Shown here one piece after another: positions 545 to 8,842 of a stretch of 64,000 nt of DNA. Within the stretch, counting starts at the first letter, position 1; each line of letters opens with the position of its first letter. The notes beneath the pieces were generated by a model. The model did no database searches, was not told the origin of the DNA, and worked only from the letters and a program-made list of their open reading frames with translations. The position numbers and the translations under genes were made by a program. The DNA is from Escherichia phage NRG-P0074, in sequence record PQ480333.1. One strand, 5' to 3'.

Positions 545-1279
545 ATGGAGCTAATCTTTTTAAGTGGCATCAAACGTAGTGGTAAAGACACTACTGCTGA
601 TTACATCAATTCAAACTTTAAATCCGTAAAATACCAATTGGCATATCCGATTAAAGACGCTCTAGCAATAGCCTGGGGACGTAAACATGCTGAAAACCCT
701 GATGTATTCACAGAGTTGAAATACGAATACTTTGAAGGTGTCGGATATGACCGTGAAACACCATTAAATCTCAATAAGTTGGATGTTATTGAATTAATGG
801 AAGAAGCGCTAATTTATTTACAAAGTCAATATTTACCAATTAATAATGTTAAAGTATTATCATCATTAGAAGGTGGATATTCATATCTAGATATTAAACC
901 ATATGAAGCCCTGCGTGAAGCTATAAATAATATCAACGACACATGGTCAATCCGCCGTCTTATGCAAGCCCTCGGTACGGATGTTGTCGTTAATTTATTT
1001 GACCGTATGTATTGGGTTAAACTTTTTGCATTAAACTATATGGATTATATTGGAAGTGATTTCGATTACTATGTTGTAACCGATACACGCCAAGTCCATG
1101 AAATGGAAACCGCCAGAGCGATGGGTGCTACAGTTATTCATGTGGTTCGCTCTGGTACGGAATCCACTGATAAACATATTACAGAAGCTGGGTTGCCTAT
1201 TGAAGAAGGCGATTTAGTTATTACAAACAACGGCTCTTTAGAAGAGCTTTATTCTAAAATTGAAACAATCTTAAGGTAA
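545..1279 (+). CDS. 1: deoxynucleoside monophosphate kinase gp1
   Basis: 244 aa; N-terminus MELIFLSGIKRSGKDTTADYI and DRMYWVKLFAL/ARAMGATVIHVVR match my memory of T4 gp1; RBS GAGGAAAA upstream. Confidence 0.95.
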   Translation: MELIFLSGIKRSGKDTTADYINSNFKSVKYQLAYPIKDALAIAWGRKHAENPDVFTELKYEYFEGVGYDRETPLNLNKLDVIELMEEALIYLQSQYLPINNVKVLSSLEGGYSYLDIKPYEALREAINNINDTWSIRRLMQALGTDVVVNLFDRMYWVKLFALNYMDYIGSDFDYYVVTDTRQVHEMETARAMGATVIHVVRSGTESTDKHITEAGLPIEEGDLVITNNGSLEELYSKIETILR

Positions 1280-1983: not shown

Positions 1984-2022
1984 TTTACATAAGGATGATG
2001 GTGTGATACTATCATCCTATCA
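1984..2022 (+). promoter_or_regulatory. early sigma70-type promoter (GTTTAC -35, GATACT -10) embedded in inverted repeat AGGATGAT/ATCATCCT
   Basis: GTTTAC at 1984-1989, -10-like at 2005-2010, palindrome 1993-2000/2012-2019; recurring architecture in this window. Confidence 0.5.
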
Positions 2023-2046
2023 AATAAACAACCTCAAGGAAATAAA

Positions 2047-2334
2047 ATGAAATCCTATAAAGAATTTATATCACCTGTTGCTAACGTTTCTACTCTGACC
2101 GAAGCAACCCTTACTTCTGAAGTTATTAAAGCAAATAAAGGACGTGAGGGTAAACCAATGATTAGTCTGGTTGACGGCGAAGAAGTAAAAGGTACTGTTT
2201 ACTTAGGGGATGGATGGTCTGCTAAGAAAGATGGCGCTACTATTGTTATCTCTCCGGCTGAAGAGACTGCACTGTTTAAAGCTAAGCATATTTCTGTAGC
2301 TCAGCTTAAAATTATTGCAAAAACTCTTCTGTAA
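2047..2334 (+). CDS. internal head protein (IpI-like) with capsid targeting sequence
   Basis: 95 aa; N-terminus MKSYKEFISPVANVSTLTE resembles T4 internal-protein capsid targeting sequence; position next to 57B as T4 ipI. Confidence 0.6.
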   Translation: MKSYKEFISPVANVSTLTEATLTSEVIKANKGREGKPMISLVDGEEVKGTVYLGDGWSAKKDGATIVISPAEETALFKAKHISVAQLKIIAKTLL

Positions 2335-3997: not shown

Positions 3998-4684
3998 ATG
4001 AATAGTTCTAAAGTGTTTAATAGTCAAGCTCGTGCAGTAGGTGGTTTTGCTCATGCGATTAAAAACGACCAGATTAAAAACGAGCCTATGTTCTTTAACT
4101 GCGATTTGAATTTTGCTTTTGATAATGGCGGCCCAATTACTCGTAGCTTTATCCAAAATCTTCCTGACGATTGGAAAGACTCGGATGTAGTATTTGATTC
4201 ACGAGTTCACATGCTGATGCCTGGTTGGTACCCTGCTATTCCTGGATATCACCATGACGATGTTCCACGCCCTGATATTCCAACAGGACAACATTTTATT
4301 ACTGCAGGACAACCTGACTATGACAACCCTCGTTACCATTCTGAACATATTCTTGGTCTTGTTAACGCTGATGTGTGTCCTACTCATTTTGCAACAGGAA
4401 CTGCAGAGTTCAGTCAGATTCCTGATGGCGAACTTATCTATCGCCAGTGGCACAAAGAAGTCCTAGAAAAAATCGAAAAAGGCGAACTAGAGAAATGGGA
4501 AGCTCCAGATCGTACTCTTCTTCAGTTTGATTGGCAAACATGGCACACTGGTTCTCGTGCAATTAGTAACGGATGGCGTTGGTTCGGACGTGTATCTCGT
4601 AATACAGACCGAGTTAAAAAGATTACCAATGAAATTCGTGTCAATGCCCAAGTTTATCTGGAATTCCCTATGGAAGGTTGGTAA
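3998..4684 (+). CDS. hypothetical protein
   Basis: 228 aa ORF, coupled to upstream gene; His/Asp-rich segment (GYHHDDV...HSEH). Confidence 0.55.
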   Translation: MNSSKVFNSQARAVGGFAHAIKNDQIKNEPMFFNCDLNFAFDNGGPITRSFIQNLPDDWKDSDVVFDSRVHMLMPGWYPAIPGYHHDDVPRPDIPTGQHFITAGQPDYDNPRYHSEHILGLVNADVCPTHFATGTAEFSQIPDGELIYRQWHKEVLEKIEKGELEKWEAPDRTLLQFDWQTWHTGSRAISNGWRWFGRVSRNTDRVKKITNEIRVNAQVYLEFPMEGW

Positions 4685-5175
4685 TGATTAACAAAACATA
4701 TTGGTCTAATATAGACGATGGCGACGAAGGTATTTCGTATTATTCGGTAGATTGGACAGGATGTCCATCCTACTTAGTGAAACATATTTGCCAAGAATTT
4801 AAAATCGACCAGCCAGCAGGTATTATCGTGAACAGATACATTAATGGATATCAACCTATCGATGAAGTAATACGAACAACTCAAGCTGAGCTTGAAAAGT
4901 TTTTCAATAAGTGCCAATGGATAACAGGATGGATTATATTTGTACCGTCAGTATGGTTTTTTAGTACTAAAGTAAGTGCCTTTGCTATACTAGATATTAT
5001 CGCTATCTTATTAGCATCTACTATCGTAAGTATTATTGGTGGTATTATTGGTGGAGGTACTGTAGGCATCATTATTAATCTTGTTAAAAGTAGTTTACAA
5101 GAACATAAAGACAAGATAAAAGCCAAGAATAATGAAGTTGAACGTTTTATTACCGAATGCAGGAATTTGAGATGA
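4684..5175 (+). CDS. hypothetical membrane protein with glycine-zipper segment
   Basis: TAATG overlap start; hydrophobic stretch IIGGIIGGGTVGIIINL. Confidence 0.55.
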   Translation: MINKTYWSNIDDGDEGISYYSVDWTGCPSYLVKHICQEFKIDQPAGIIVNRYINGYQPIDEVIRTTQAELEKFFNKCQWITGWIIFVPSVWFFSTKVSAFAILDIIAILLASTIVSIIGGIIGGGTVGIIINLVKSSLQEHKDKIKAKNNEVERFITECRNLR

Positions 5176-5408
5176 GTATAGCAATTTACATTAAATCAGA
5201 ATCATGTGATAGTTATCTGTACACATACGATAAAGATGTGTCAGAAGAAAAAATCAAAGACGATCTTAATATGGACCTTGATATGTTCTGTCCTATTGCA
5301 GATTACAAACTTGCGGTCTCTAATAGTGAAAGTCCATCTAAAGAAACGCGCATCGAAGAATTTATGTCCGAATTAATGGCCAAATCATGGGGCCGAGATG
5401 ATGAGTAA
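5172..5408 (+). CDS. hypothetical acidic protein
   Basis: ATGA overlap with upstream stop; 78 aa. Confidence 0.45.
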   Translation: MSIAIYIKSESCDSYLYTYDKDVSEEKIKDDLNMDLDMFCPIADYKLAVSNSESPSKETRIEEFMSELMAKSWGRDDE

Positions 5409-5856
5409 GAAAAATAAAGTGAAAGAACTATCAGCCGGTATTATTTTCCTTACCGAAGATAAAGAATTATTCATGGGGCGTGTAACTGGTTCTCGTCCTA
5501 AAGGTTCTTTAGCTCATCGGTGGGATATTCCTAAAGGCCGTGTCGAACCTGGCGAATCTCCTATTGAAGCCGCTATTCGTGAATGCGAAGAAGAAACTGG
5601 GTTTACACAATATGACCCTGCCTTCCTGAAAGACCTAGGTGAACATCATTACTCAGACAATAAGAATATTCATCTGTTCTTATATACCATCCCTGTAGAG
5701 CACGAGCAATTCAGAAATAGTGTTTGTAATTCCTATCATACATTCCCAGACGGACGTCAGATTCCTGAATTTGATGCATTCGCTTTAATTAAACCTTCTC
5801 AATGGGAATATGTAATGGGCAAATCATTATATAAGGTGCTCACTACCCTCCTATAA
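5398..5856 (+). CDS. nudE: Nudix hydrolase NudE
   Basis: Nudix box GRVEPGESPIEAAIRECEEETGF; located immediately upstream of e as T4 e.1/nudE. Confidence 0.85.
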   Translation: MMSKKNKVKELSAGIIFLTEDKELFMGRVTGSRPKGSLAHRWDIPKGRVEPGESPIEAAIRECEEETGFTQYDPAFLKDLGEHHYSDNKNIHLFLYTIPVEHEQFRNSVCNSYHTFPDGRQIPEFDAFALIKPSQWEYVMGKSLYKVLTTLL

Positions 5857-5857
5857 G

Positions 5858-5887
5858 TAATAAATACCTCCTATAAACGTGGGAGGT
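5858..5887 (+). promoter_or_regulatory. late-promoter-like boxes plus hairpin sequestering the e RBS
   Basis: AATAAATAC (5860-5868) and TATAAACG (5872-5879) resemble T4 late TATAAATA; ACCTCC 5866-5871 pairs with GGAGGT 5882-5887 (the SD of e). Confidence 0.45.
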
Positions 5888-5890
5888 ATT

Positions 5891-6379
5891 ATGAATATAT
5901 TTGAAATGCTTCGTAATGACGAAGGTCTTAGACTGACTTTATACAAAGACACTGAAGGCTTTTGGACGATTGGCATAGGCCATTTAGTAACAAAGAACCC
6001 GTCTTTAGCCGTAGCTAAAGCTGAACTTGACAGAATGATCGGACGTAAATGCAACGGTACAATTACCCTTGATGAGGCTGAAAAGCTATTTAATGAAGAC
6101 GTTGATAAAGCCGTTCGCGGAATCTTGGGTAATGCTAAACTTAAACCGGTATATGATTCTTTAGATGCAGTTCGTCGGTGTGCATTGGTCAATATGGTCT
6201 TCCAAATGGGTGTAGCAGGAGTCGCCGGTTTTACTAATTCTCTTCGTATGCTTCAACAGAAACGTTGGGATGAAGCGGCAGTAAATCTAGCCCAATCTAA
6301 ATGGTATCGTCAGACACCTAATCGCGCGAAACGCGTAATCTCAACATTTAAAACAGGAACTTGGAAAGCGTATATATGA
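5891..6379 (+). CDS. e: endolysin (T4 lysozyme e)
   Basis: [32 protein letters not shown]... near-identical in pattern to T4 lysozyme; SD GGAGG 5 nt upstream. Confidence 0.97.
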
Positions 6380-6657
6380 AAACATATAGTGAATTTTTAT
6401 CAGAATCTATTCTTAACGAAGCTACTGACACATTTGCAACTAAGCTAGGTGCAGCTTTGGTTGAAGCTGAAAGTCTATTAGCACGTATTTCTGAACTTGC
6501 TAGTAAGATAGATACTCGCAAATTTGAACGTACCAGCGATATCGCTAAGCTTGAAGCTTTGTTACGTATGTGCGATAAACCGGAAGAAATCGCTAAGAAC
6601 GGCTCGTTAATGAAACAACGTCTTGAAAAATATATTTCAGGCGCTTCAGAAAAATAG
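6376..6657 (+). CDS. internal head protein with capsid targeting sequence
   Basis: ATGA overlap with e stop; N-terminus [15 protein letters not shown] resembles T4 capsid targeting sequence. Confidence 0.6.
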
Positions 6658-6658
6658 T

Positions 6659-6713
6659 GTTTACTTCCTCCAAGGACTTTGATACTATACATTCATCAAC
6701 TACTTGGAGGAAA
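6659..6713 (+). promoter_or_regulatory. early promoter flanked by 10-bp inverted repeat TTCCTCCAAG/CTTGGAGGAA that includes the denV RBS
   Basis: GTTTAC 6659-6664; -10-like GATACTATA; right arm 6704-6713 contains GGAGG for ATG 6716. Confidence 0.5.
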
Positions 6714-6715
6714 TT

Positions 6716-7129
6716 ATGACTCGTATCAATTTAACACTTGTTTCTGAACTGTCCGACCAACATCTTATGGCTGAGTATCGTGAATTACCACGCGTATTTG
6801 GTGCAGTCCGTAAACATGTTCAAAACGGTAAACGTGTAAAGGATTTTAAAATCTCTCCAACATTTATCTTAGGCACAGGTCACGTAACATTCTTTTACGA
6901 CAAACTCGAATTTTTACGTTTACGTCAAATCGAGCTAATCGCTGAATGTTTGAAACGTGGTTTCAAAATCAAGGACACGACAGTCCAGGATATTTCCGAC
7001 ATCCCTGCCGAATTTCGTAATAATTATGTCCCGTCCGAAGCGTCCATTGCGATAAGTCAAGCACGCTTAGATGAAAAAATTGCTCAACGTCCGACTTGGT
7101 ACAAATACTATGGTAAATCAATTTACTAA
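6716..7129 (+). CDS. denV: endonuclease V (pyrimidine dimer DNA glycosylase/AP lyase)
   Basis: [35 protein letters not shown]... matches T4 DenV as I recall it. Confidence 0.95.
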
Positions 7130-7135
7130 GGAAAA

Positions 7136-7396
7136 ATGAAAATGTATCAAGAATTTATCATTGAAGCAGATGCCAAAGGTCCTAAATTTAAAGTTAAAGC
7201 TTTCATTGGTGATGCGGAAGACTTTGGCTCATTAAAACGTAATGGGTATTCTTTCTTAGGTGGCGATGGTAAAGAAATCAACACCTATGCAAAACGTAGT
7301 GAAATTGCTTATGTTGTAGCAAGTCCTAAAGTAGATGTTGACGATATTGGATATGATTTTAACAACTTCGGAATTATTTCTGGCGGTAAAGCTTAA
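7136..7396 (+). CDS. internal head protein with capsid targeting sequence
   Basis: N-terminus MKMYQEFIIEA; 86 aa. Confidence 0.6.
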   Translation: MKMYQEFIIEADAKGPKFKVKAFIGDAEDFGSLKRNGYSFLGGDGKEINTYAKRSEIAYVVASPKVDVDDIGYDFNNFGIISGGKA

Positions 7397-7399
7397 ATT

Positions 7400-7429
7400 G
7401 TTTACGCTTAAGTATTAATATGGTATAAT
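7400..7429 (+). promoter_or_regulatory. early sigma70-type promoter
   Basis: GTTTAC 7400-7405, 18-bp spacer, TATAAT 7424-7429. Confidence 0.55.
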
Positions 7430-7459
7430 TACTCTATCAAAACAAACAAGGAAACAAAA

Positions 7460-7774
7460 ATGAAAACGTATAAAGAATTTATTGCAGAATCCGCCAACCA
7501 ACGCGTTGAAGGTGGTTATATTTGGATTGAACAAGTTGAGCCACCGAGCCGCACTTCTACAGGTAAATGGAAAATTACTGTTGACGGTCCTGGTGGTAAA
7601 CGTAGGACTCTTAAAGAAATTAATGGGTACTATGAAGAAGCTCTTTCGGATGCAGGAACTTACATGATGCAAATCATGATTAAAAACCCTGAAAACCGTT
7701 TTGCAGCTAAAGTCTTCCGTCGTATTGGTAATAAACTTTATGATGCATACTCTAAAAACTTCCCTAAAGAATAA
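7460..7774 (+). CDS. internal head protein with capsid targeting sequence
   Basis: N-terminus MKTYKEFIAESA; 104 aa. Confidence 0.65.
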   Translation: MKTYKEFIAESANQRVEGGYIWIEQVEPPSRTSTGKWKITVDGPGGKRRTLKEINGYYEEALSDAGTYMMQIMIKNPENRFAAKVFRRIGNKLYDAYSKNFPKE

Positions 7775-7799
7775 CATAAATTAAAACAATAGGAACAAA

Positions 7800-8129
7800 A
7801 TGAAAACATATCAGGAGTTTATCACTGAAGTTACATTATCTGCGGAACAGAAAGCTGCTATCGAAGAAGGTAAAAATCCCAAAGTAACATACAAAGTAAA
7901 TAGTAAAGGCGTTTTTGATGGCTTGGTTCAAGACCCTGAATTGAAAAAAGCTCTTTCTAAAACTAATGCGTACTTTGCTCCTAAATTTAACACAGCCGGT
8001 GTACTTATTGGATTGGATGTATTCAACTCTAAAGGTGTTCTATCTAATGCCTTTGGTTATGCCGCTAACAAAATTACCAAAGCCGCATGGGAATCCAATA
8101 CCAAACAAGCTCAAAAGCCTAGAGTATAA
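7800..8129 (+). CDS. internal head protein with capsid targeting sequence
   Basis: N-terminus MKTYQEFITEV; 109 aa. Confidence 0.65.
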   Translation: MKTYQEFITEVTLSAEQKAAIEEGKNPKVTYKVNSKGVFDGLVQDPELKKALSKTNAYFAPKFNTAGVLIGLDVFNSKGVLSNAFGYAANKITKAAWESNTKQAQKPRV

Positions 8130-8302
8130 TTCTTGCCTAATAAAGGGAAACGCAACCTCTCCTCATGAACGTCGAGTCCTCTGAGTGATGTACCTTTTCC
8201 AACCTGTAATAAGGTCGAGCGCAATGCGGTAATGGGTTTACATAGCGAGTCGAAGGACCTAACATGTGCCACGGAATGGCCCCAACCTAAAAGAGAAACT
8301 AA

Positions 8303-8842
8303 ATGAGAACATTTTTAACTGGACCTTATCTATCCCTGATGAATGCTTTTACACACCATTCTGATGCTAGAGTAGAAGAAATTTGTAAGAACGGTTATAT
8401 CCCACCGTTTGAAGACGTACTCAAGCAGTACTGTACACTTCGTTTAGACGGCGGCAGACAATCAGGTAAATCGACCGCAGTAACTAATTTTGCTGCTAAT
8501 TGGCTGTATGATGGTGGAACAGTTATTGTTCTTTCTAATACTTCAGCTTATGCTAAAATTTCTGCTGGCAACATTGAAAAAGAATTTTCTCGTTATTCTA
8601 GCGATGATATTCGATTCCGTTTATTTACTGATTCTGTTCGTAGTTTTATTGGCAATGAAGGTTCTAAATTCCGTGGATTAACGCTTTCTCGTATTCTGTA
8701 TATAATTGACGAGCCTATTAAAGCTCCTGATATGGATAAGATTTACAATGTCCACATTAAAACAGTACAGCACTGCTGCAAAAGCAAATATTGCATCGGC
8801 GGTAATGCTCGTCCTCAATTTTTTGTGATTGGAATGCAATGA
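8303..8842 (+). CDS. hypothetical P-loop NTPase
   Basis: Walker A GGRQSGKST and Walker B-like LYIIDEP; 179 aa. Confidence 0.55.
   Translation: MRTFLTGPYLSLMNAFTHHSDARVEEICKNGYIPPFEDVLKQYCTLRLDGGRQSGKSTAVTNFAANWLYDGGTVIVLSNTSAYAKISAGNIEKEFSRYSSDDIRFRLFTDSVRSFIGNEGSKFRGLTLSRILYIIDEPIKAPDMDKIYNVHIKTVQHCCKSKYCIGGNARPQFFVIGMQ

Follow-up and report, generated by a model that had tools for sequence, protein, structure and literature searches.

Five T4-type internal protein genes in two variable loci of an RB69-like phage: IPI and four orphan proteins with a probable role against host nucleases

The 64,000-nucleotide stretch of Escherichia phage NRG-P0074 analysed here (PQ480333.1; hereafter the window) harbours five small genes that are well supported, on sequence features, as T4-type internal protein (Ip) genes of an RB69-like T-even phage (Table 1). 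They are found in two hypervariable T4-type loci, and their products are probably packaged in the head, cleaved and injected, with an anti-nuclease role being the most likely one for the four proteins of the array around denV. As all five genes carry the capsid targeting leader of T4, their products most likely enter the head during assembly and reach the host cell along with the DNA.

Table 1. Features of the two internal protein loci in the window
Feature	Position	Strand	Basis
T4-early-type promoter TTTACA-N17-TACTAT with overlapping 11-nt stem-loop (inverted repeat 1992-2002/2008-2018), upstream of ipI	1984-2018	+	Promoter scan
ipI, internal protein I precursor, 95 aa	2047-2334	+	Pfam PF11634 IPI_T4; position after 57B
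e (lysozyme), left border of Ip locus 2	5888-6379	+	Pfam Phage_lysozyme; T4 order e-ipIII-ipII-denV
Ip gene, 93 aa, phrog_3499 'internal head protein' = RB69ORF127c	6376-6657	+	phrog_3499, E 2e-46
Early-type promoter GTTTAC ... GATACTAT within 15-nt inverted repeat (6665-6679/6698-6712), upstream of denV	6659-6712	+	Comparison with T4 denV upstream sequence
denV, endonuclease V/pyrimidine-dimer glycosylase, resident gene inside Ip locus 2	6716-7129	+	Pfam PF03013 Pyr_excise; phrog_1183, E 3e-62
Ip gene, 86 aa, phrog_2667 'internal head protein' = RB69ORF125c	7136-7396	+	Leader MKMYQEFIIE; phrog_2667, E 7e-21
Early-type promoter TTTACG-N17-TATAAT (10/12, extended -10), upstream of the last two Ip genes	7401-7429	+	Promoter scan
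Ip gene, 104 aa, Ip10 family = RB69ORF124c, intact here	7460-7774	+	Leader MKTYKEFIAE; phrog_3966
Ip gene, 109 aa = RB69ORF123c, rarest of the set	7800-8129	+	Leader MKTYQEFITE; phrog_3966

A six-frame scan of the window for K-x-Y-x-E-F-[ILVM] returned exactly five matches, all on the + strand, adjoining an initiator Met and located at the starts of the ORFs at 2047, 6376, 7136, 7460 and 7800. In 300 first-order Markov simulations of the window, chance produced a mean of 0.13 matches, and of 0.003 once the Met was required. The original prediction of four leader-bearing ORFs interleaved with denV plus a fifth at 2047 is thus borne out, including its coordinates. The leader of the five ORFs, MK[TSM]Y[KQS]EF[IL], aligns by BLASTP to residues 1-10 of T4 IPII/IPIII (MKTYQEFIAE). 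Its protein sequence is kept from family to family, with synonymous changes in the DNA, the nucleotide identity among the five genes being 63-83% over codons 1-10 and 17-40% over the next 30 nt. At the level of motifs, a prohead-protease-type (L/I)xE signature is present in all of them, namely LTE19 in IPI, LSE10/LNE15 in the 6376 protein, and IIE10, IAE10 and ITE10 in the 7136, 7460 and 7800 proteins, respectively. The five ORFs are intact, with full leader, cleavage motif and RBS, and the sizes (8-11 kDa) and pI values (6.4-9.7) of the mature proteins resemble those of T4 Ips.

The gene order is gp1-57A-57B-ipI and e-Ip-denV-Ip-Ip-Ip-vs.8 in the window, compared with 57B-ipI and e-ipIII-ipII-denV-vs.8 in T4, which places the five genes in both of the classic Ip loci of T-even phages (57B-ipI and e-denV). 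Two of them are labelled 'internal head protein' in RefSeq RB69, and the PHROG matches are to families of the head-and-packaging category. Together with the leader, the (L/I)xE motif and the similarity of one protein to Ip10 (see below), these features agree with the earlier assignment of the ORFs to the T4-type internal proteins.

ORF 2047 is securely identified by its sequence as IPI itself, with GmrSD as its known target by orthology. It matches Pfam PF11634 IPI_T4 at E 1.3e-50 and 169.7 bits (cut-off 25), residues 20-95 covering profile positions 1-76, and a predicted cut after L-T-E19 would yield a 76-aa IPI*. The precursor is 87% identical to T4 IPI, with a mature part identical at 72/76 positions (four substitutions, V/I, V/A, Q/H and T/N) and a leader reading MKSYKEFISP here and MKTFKEFTST in T4. 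The published description of RB69 IPI, with the same four mature-form differences from T4, fits ORF 2047, and RB69 IPI is reported to protect the phage from GmrSD restriction (PMC6024577). ORF 2047 thus resembles T4 IPI, the injected inhibitor of the GmrSD of E. coli CT596, in length, post-57B position, early promoter and residue-19 cleavage motif. However, the DNA of T4 carries glucosyl-hmC, and that of this phage type arabinosyl-hmC (PMC6024577). Horizontal transfer of ipI between genera is not supported, because its identity with T4 is no higher than that of denV (91% with T4 DenV) or vs.6 (94%) at the amino-acid level.

All five cargos had been proposed to be divergent, which holds for the four array ORFs but not for this T4 IPI orthologue. 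The IPI_T4 domain of Pfam has no match in the four array ORFs, whose products show no similarity to T4 IPI* past the leader. The array is compact: the stop of e overlaps the start of the 6376 gene (ATGA), denV is placed between the first and second array ORFs, and the 7136 gene starts 6 nt past the denV stop. Without their leaders, the 6376 and 7136 proteins still match phrog_3499 (E 5e-40) and phrog_2667 (E 1e-12), respectively. Relatives of the 6376 protein that have no E10 retain LNE15, and its mature N-terminus likely follows L-N-E15, judging from these motifs. This family, with a dN/dS of 0.10, is represented in 496 phage records; some of its members, at ~47% identity, occupy the ipI locus in Tequatroviruses. 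The 7136 family (217 phage records; dN/dS 0.18) comprises many shortened public copies and one denV::Ip fusion, and the AF2 model of the 7136 protein was unusable (pLDDT 42).

The 7460 protein aligns along 100% of its length with 'Ip10' of Shigella phage SP18, at 72% identity, and its family was found in 189 phage records, with a dN/dS of 0.27-0.35. The AF2 model (pLDDT 82, pTM 0.73) is composed of a beta-sheet and a long helix, for which a structure search gave no informative fold match; a CsgH match at 13.5 bits in the Pfam/NCBIfam searches was dismissed as noise. The 7800 family is found in 90 phage records. HMMER searches with its cargo against 1.84 billion representative proteins identified only its own cluster and one 33%-identical protein with the leader; weak hits on repeats within giant proteins were dismissed as compositional.

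No significant pairwise similarity was detected by BLASTP between the mature parts of the five proteins, and the four array proteins have only the 10-codon leader in common with each other and with T4 IPII/IPIII. The claim that the ORFs 'differ completely' past the cleavage site therefore holds at this level, but it needs amending for the 7460 and 7800 cargos, both of which fall in the remote-homology family phrog_3966 of PHROGs, which includes 'Ip10', also when the leader is removed. The full-length BLASTP match between those two proteins (E 2e-4) depends on the leader, the leaderless E value being 0.086, and hhalign of the Ip10-family profile with the 7800 cargo gave a probability of 0.1%, although both cargos match phrog_3966. 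Sequence searches of PDB chains with the array proteins as queries gave nothing below E 0.1 for any of the four, and IPI and denV alone were matched among these ORFs by Pfam and NCBIfam. Neither in sequence nor in fold do the four cargos resemble IPI*, IPII, IPIII or a known anti-defence protein, and no function could be assigned to them by sequence, domain and fold searches. No tRNA or structured RNA was seen in the array and its surroundings.

T4 IPII (Ip2) inhibits the BrxU-type GmrSD of ECOR21, and T4 IPIII (Ip3) the GmrSD of ECOR17, which is encoded by two genes. The array proteins are like them in locus, leader, IxE10 motif, size range and basic charge, and presumably in their route of packaging and injection. 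Nevertheless, their mature domains are unrelated in sequence, the BLASTP alignment ending at the leader, and the PHROGs differ (phrog_7857 and phrog_5341 for T4 IPII/IPIII, versus phrog_3499, phrog_2667 and phrog_3966). Furthermore, the array genes flank denV on both sides (one plus three), whereas ipIII and ipII are both upstream of it in T4. The four array proteins thus stand outside the T4 IPII/IPIII families but may still work like Ip2/Ip3. The class that holds them, with no substantive difference, is the polymorphic T-even Ip set (Ip4-Ip10 and beyond), similarly made of variable cassettes in two loci with early-promoter/stem-loop elements; its members Ip4-Ip10 were reportedly described by Repoila in 1994.

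The sequence upstream of ipI is the same as for T4 ipI. The promoter scan revealed no canonical late promoter TATAAATA near these genes, and the timing of their expression would therefore rest on the early-type promoters and on read-through from e. Early-promoter/stem-loop elements flanking Ip genes have been described for Ip loci (PMC2839356).

The window belongs to a Mosigvirus, with 98-99.7% identity to RB69, a20 and JK36, and the array alleles have counterparts of 96-100% identity among the deposited proteins of many Mosigvirus genomes. In 36 related T-even-like phages, Ip locus 2 (e-denV) contains between zero and five leader ORFs, on both sides of denV, with at least 16 cargo clusters. 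The array cargo families also occur in other genera and show presence or absence at the strain level; one of them is in locus 2 here and in the ipI locus of Tequatrovirus G9062. The leader DNA was a crossover site in the loss of an RB69p156-type gene. Sequence anatomy, family membership, locus position and cassette turnover are thus direct observations. The RB69 reference alleles of three genes look damaged, with a scrambled leader in ORF127c, a frameshifted C-terminus in ORF124c and an E10A change in ORF123c; together with the many shortened copies of the 7136 family, they indicate that the genes are dispensable under laboratory conditions.

By analogy with T4, we infer the following sequence of packaging, cleavage, injection and anti-restriction activity for the four array proteins. 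The N-terminal capsid targeting sequence of about 10 residues would bind the precursors to the gp22 scaffolding core during prohead assembly. The gp21 prohead protease would then cut past (L/I)-x-E, at residue 10 in the 7136, 7460 and 7800 proteins, probably 15 in the 6376 protein and 19 in IPI, to free mature proteins of 8-11 kDa. RB69, 98.4% identical across the region, encodes 67, 68, 21, 22, 23 and 24, including the gp21 protease and gp22 core; these head genes map outside the window. The mature proteins would remain in the head alongside the DNA and be ejected with it into the cell before any phage gene expression. There, IPI* would block the GmrSD type IV restriction enzyme. By analogy with T4 Ip1, Ip2 and Ip3, each array protein most likely neutralizes one specific first-line nuclease directed at sugar-modified hmC DNA, other GmrSD variants being the most probable targets. 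The Ip set changes through gain, loss and swapping of whole cassettes rather than fast divergence by point mutation, with exchange presumably by recombination in the conserved leader/RBS DNA and the flanking early-promoter/stem-loop elements.

A different role for packaged array proteins would be purely structural or physico-chemical, as counter-ions or spacers that aid DNA condensation, packaging speed or ejection and have no host target. The mature 7460 and 7800 proteins are indeed basic (pI 9.6-9.7, net +5/+7), like T4 IPII/IPIII, the T4 head contains about 1000 Ip molecules whose lysines touch DNA phosphates (PMC3012670), and none of the four array proteins has a known target. However, a pI of 6.4 makes the 7136 cargo neutral, and that of 6376 is nearly so. 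A generic counter-ion role also explains neither the strain-level presence and absence of these genes nor why 16 or more folds, unrelated to one another, are each conserved, at dN/dS values of 0.1-0.35. As all three T4 Ips moreover have specific enzyme targets (PMC12373910), we consider a purely structural role very unlikely. It is even less probable that some of the four are non-functional as internal proteins, i.e. decaying cassettes or early cytoplasmic proteins whose leader DNA is kept as a recombination site. The early-type, rather than late, promoters directly upstream, the damaged RB69 alleles, the shortened copies and denV::Ip fusion of the 7136 family, and the crossover in leader DNA noted above are in line with such a status. 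Nevertheless, the five ORFs are intact in the window, the leader is conserved as amino acids despite synonymous differences, the mature domains are under purifying selection (dN/dS 0.10-0.35), and T4 ipI, which has the same early-type promoter as ipI here, codes for a proven virion protein (PMC3012670).

Lastly, the array proteins might be injected anti-defence effectors directed against systems other than GmrSD, such as Brig1-type DNA glycosylases, other modification-dependent nucleases or sensors acting in the first minutes of infection. The cargo folds are unrelated to IPI*, phages with arabinosyl-hmC meet a different defence spectrum from those with glucosyl-hmC (PMC13216743), and ip4-10 had no reproducible inhibitory effect on 15 GmrSD groups, a screen limited to T-even test phages and to these 15 representatives (Silas 2025; PMC12373910). 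Conversely, the three Ips with known targets all act on GmrSD-family enzymes, which are extremely diverse (PMC12373910), and we regard targets outside this family as unlikely on balance. GmrSD variants remain our preferred targets for the array proteins. That at least one of the 6376, 7136, 7460 or 7800 cargos inhibits, after injection, a non-GmrSD defence or a nuclease or glycosylase specific for arabinosyl-hmC appears distinctly unlikely. If true, it would mean that the Ip delivery module reaches beyond type IV restriction and that the Ip repertoire depends on how the DNA is hypermodified.

The anti-defence role that we infer for the array proteins by analogy is in keeping with the literature on the class. 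Rao and Black (2010) already state the idea of injected anti-defence proteins (PMC3012670), and Arbiol (2010) puts the number of Ip variants above 30, crediting them to Comeau (2007), as cited in PMC2839356. Silas (2025) showed that T4 Ip1, Ip2 and Ip3 inhibit one GmrSD enzyme each, all three being different, and proposed the same role for all Ip-locus genes (PMC12373910). IPIII is required for infection of ECOR17, and leaderless IPIII expressed in the cell rescued an ip-deleted phage on a restricting host (PMC9391042). Our literature search turned up neither virion proteomics on a Mosigvirus Ip nor anything on RB69ORF123c-127c. The original prediction of candidate injected anti-defence effectors is thus right but not new, because it is already the published view of the Ip class (PMC3012670, PMC2839356, PMC12373910). 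The gene class, its two variable loci, the anti-restriction role and these very sequences are all public, and the finding is an ordinary one. By contrast, the suggestion that the cargos are matched to the DNA modification of the phage finds no support: the IPI mature domain is nearly the same as that of T4, a glucosyl-hmC phage, and the other cargo families span genera. These mixed distributions suggest that cargo families would not segregate by glycosyltransferase type.

The Ip loci are akin to anti-CRISPR and anti-defence hotspots, an analogy made by Silas 2025 (PMC12373910), in that small, unrelated and rapidly exchanged genes occupy fixed positions, each thought to be specific for one defence variant. 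However, Ip proteins are made beforehand, packaged and injected through a common N-terminal targeting and cleavage module, whereas the expression of anti-CRISPRs normally follows entry. With its injected internal proteins the phage makes its first move against host nucleases, and these proteins decide which wild strains are open to T4-like therapeutic phages. As a routine continuation of the work of Silas 2025, a Mosigvirus with IPI and four orphans represents a reasonable test set for Ip targets, particularly for enzymes that cut arabinosyl-hmC DNA.

A six-frame scan of the 64 kb for K-x-Y-x-E-F-[ILVM] yielded exactly five matches, at 2047, 6376, 7136, 7460 and 7800, all on the + strand, immediately preceded by Met and located at an ORF start. 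The mean number expected from first-order Markov simulations was 0.13, falling to 0.003 when the Met was required. MKTYQEFITE is among the five leaders, and both IPII and IPIII of T4 start with MKTYQEFIAE. The original prediction of five small leader-bearing ORFs at these positions, with denV inside the array, was thus correct. The window is oriented in reverse of the standard T4 map. Its 5800-8300 region matches Escherichia phage BEU50 at 99.7% identity, phage a20 and Shigella phage JK36 at 99.3%, and RB69 at 98.4%; all of these are Mosigvirus (Straboviridae, Tevenvirinae). Coverage of the full 2.5 kb reaches 80% or more in just 67 records, which makes this particular combination of four genes one of several configurations.

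Features of the two Ip loci. The column 'Phage records' counts tblastn matches to the mature domain in a set of 50,697 such records.
Feature	Position	Strand	RB69 counterpart	Family or similarity	Phage records	Context
gp1	545-1279					followed by 57A and 57B
ipI	2047-2334	+				after 57B; several small ORFs next
nudE	5398-5856					followed by e
e	5888-6379					followed by the array with denV
ORF 6376	from 6376	+	ORF127c	phrog_3499 'internal head protein', E 2e-46	496	start overlaps the e stop (ATGA)
denV	6716-7129			Pfam Pyr_excise, phrog_1183; 91% identical to T4 DenV		between first and second array genes
ORF 7136	7136-7396	+	ORF125c	phrog_2667 'internal head protein', E 7e-21	217	start 6 nt past the denV stop
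Strong early-type promoter	7401-7429			TTTACG-N17-TATAAT		ahead of ORFs 7460 and 7800
ORF 7460	from 7460	+	ORF124c	phrog_3966	189
ORF 7800	from 7800	+	ORF123c	phrog_3966	90
vs.8	8303-8842					after the array

The similarity ends with the leader. Nucleotide identity among the five genes is 63-83% in codons 1-10 and 17-40% in the following 30 nt, and BLASTP alignments of the five proteins with one another and with T4 IPI, IPII and IPIII extend no further than the leader. With leaders removed, the 7136 cargo did not align with that of RB69p156, an extra leader gene of RB69; the 7460 and 7800 cargos matched at E 0.086, and hhalign of the 7460-family profile (nine sequences) against the 7800 cargo gave a probability of 0.1%. 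Nevertheless, PHROGs searches without the leader assigned the 7460 cargo as well as the 7800 cargo to phrog_3966, and those of 7136 and RB69p156 to phrog_2667. The prediction that the proteins differ completely after the cleavage site thus holds at the pairwise level only, and a very remote relationship within these two pairs is conceivable.

ORF 2047-2334, which had also been taken to carry a divergent cargo, matches Pfam IPI_T4 (PF11634; E 1.3e-50, residues 20-95). Its product is 87% identical to T4 IPI, with four differences from mature T4 IPI (IPI*) after the cleavage motif L-T-E19, in agreement with the four-residue count published for RB69 IPI, which protects RB69 from GmrSD (PMC6024577). 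Upstream of it lies the early promoter/stem-loop that T4 ipI also has. Based on these similarities, this ORF is IPI, and its cargo is already known.

For the four array proteins, we found no sequence relatives in the PDB and no Pfam or NCBIfam families; the AlphaFold2 model of the ORF 7136 protein, with a pLDDT of only 42, was not usable. Among the records matching ORF 6376, 238 of the 496 are at least 90% identical (Mosigvirus) and ~258 are at ~47%, including a copy in Tequatrovirus G9062 directly behind 57B, i.e. at the ipI locus. The ORF 7460 protein, which some records annotate as 'internal head protein', shares 72% identity with 'Ip10' from Shigella phage SP18. Among 1.84 billion representative proteins, the 7800 cargo is nearly an orphan: a single protein, 33% identical, is genuinely related, and it too starts with a leader, MKTYQQFITE. 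Long forms of the Ip10 family (P0011, P0014 and P0015, 143-153 residues, e.g. in Escherichia phage EcS1; positions 4429-4878 of the related locus L023) harbour a further domain of ~50 residues, positioned between leader and conserved core, which suggests that the leader can deliver multi-domain cargos on the same core. Numerous public copies of the 7136 family (P0019-P0027) are truncated or frameshifted; in P0027 the N-terminal ~30 residues of DenV run into the C-terminal ~24 of this Ip, implying a deletion across the denV-Ip boundary.

Each gene has a GGA-type ribosome-binding site 6-9 nt upstream, and denV has its own early promoter within a 15-nt inverted repeat. No late promoter (TATAAATA) was found near the Ip genes. 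T4 ipI, with the same promoter arrangement, encodes a proven virion protein. All four array proteins have an (L/I)xE motif ending at residue 10. As relatives of the 6376 protein without E10 keep the next motif, LNE15, residue 15 is the likelier predicted cut in that protein. The predicted mature products (8.1-10.8 kDa, pI 6.4-9.7) are similar to T4 IPI* and IPII. Genes 21, 22, 67 and 68, for the protease and the core, fall outside the window but are present in RB69. Three alleles of the RB69 reference (L001; 5577-5858, 6661-6933 and 7002-7331) appear impaired relative to the window: the leader of ORF127c is scrambled (MKTYMNFYQNLSLNE), the C-terminus of ORF124c is frameshifted (90 versus 104 residues), and ORF123c carries the E10A change with loss of the IxE cleavage motif. 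These may reflect laboratory-passage decay or sequencing error.

We surveyed 80 IMG/VR loci around denV, 36 of them T-even-like. The latter contain 0-5 leader-bearing ORFs each, located on both sides of denV, and together at least 16 cargo clusters, including IPII-like and IPIII-like ones and the four of the window. Ip genes interleaved with denV are therefore the normal state of the locus in the subfamily. With dN/dS values of 0.10-0.35 relative to diverged homologues, the mature domains evolve under purifying selection; Ip diversity thus stems from cassette turnover and not rapid substitution. In two Mosigvirus-like IMG/VR contigs with 99% identical denV (L004 and L005, 4745-5323), a 192-residue IPIII-family gene fills the slot of the 104-residue Ip10-family gene of the window, a direct case of one cargo taking the place of another at the same site.

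Both loci show signs of further rearrangement. RB69p156 (L084; record positions 76783-77109; 108 residues, phrog_2667), the sixth RB69 leader gene, lies between 57B and ipI and has no counterpart in the window. Window 2015-2069 aligns to the 5' ends of both RB69p156 and RB69 ipI; the gain or loss thus occurred inside the RBS-plus-leader DNA, an illustration of cassette exchange via the leader sequence. Directly behind the ipI stop lies an RB69ORF135c homologue (2384-2635), whereas in RB69 (L084, 68800-78500) about 7.2 kb with tRNA.4 to tRNA.2, two tRNAs, e.8 to e.3 and ORF136c-139c lies between the two genes. Because the junction (2335-2384) is a chimera of two RB69 early-promoter/stem-loop cassettes (GTTTACA-N17-TATAGT, stem TGATAGGACTA/TAGTCCTATCA), recombination between them appears to have caused a deletion. 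An uninterrupted copy of this junction is absent from all 50,697 phage records, and no tRNA gene occurs anywhere in the window. The 173 nt that separate the final Ip gene from vs.8 (8130-8302) lack any annotated gene on the + strand; their GC content is ~0.44, versus 0.37 in the surroundings, and they have no Rfam match and a fold less stable than shuffled controls (z +1.98). A 66-residue reverse-strand ORF is annotated in the phage a20 counterpart. This segment may be the remnant of a lost cassette.

According to Arbiol et al. (2010), who draw on Repoila (1994) and Comeau (2007), there are two IP loci, both highly variable, and >30 IP variants, and the flanking early-promoter/stem-loop elements are probable drivers of shuffling (PMC2839356). 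Infection of ECOR17 requires IPIII, and leaderless IPIII works when expressed in the cell (Srikant et al. 2022; PMC9391042). Ip1, Ip2 and Ip3 each block a different GmrSD enzyme without cross-protection, and every gene of both loci has been proposed to target GmrSD variants; tests of ip4-10 on 15 GmrSD groups yielded no reproducible inhibition (Silas et al. 2025; PMC12373910). The hypothesis of injected anti-defence effectors has therefore already been published and, with the experiment suggested for it, represents the current state of the field. A further proposal, that the cargos match the distinct DNA modification of this phage, is conceivable but unsupported. RB69-type phages have arabinosyl-hmC DNA, and the CT596 GmrSD cuts both this and glucosyl-hmC DNA (PMC6024577). 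IPI* is nearly identical in T4 and the window, and the other cargo families also occur in Tequatrovirus, Gaprivervirus/Dhakavirus-like and Enterobacter/Cronobacter phages. No tie to arabinosyl-hmC emerged from these comparisons.

The array is thus a real feature, correctly read from the sequence and already known both as a class and as sequences. By analogy, the T4-type mechanism is the best explanation of its genes: the leader would direct the precursors into the scaffold core, gp21 would cleave them, and the mature proteins would be co-injected with the DNA, each inhibiting one modification-dependent nuclease, one-to-one. Packaging and injection of the array proteins are probable, and the case for anti-restriction by any given cargo is evenly balanced.
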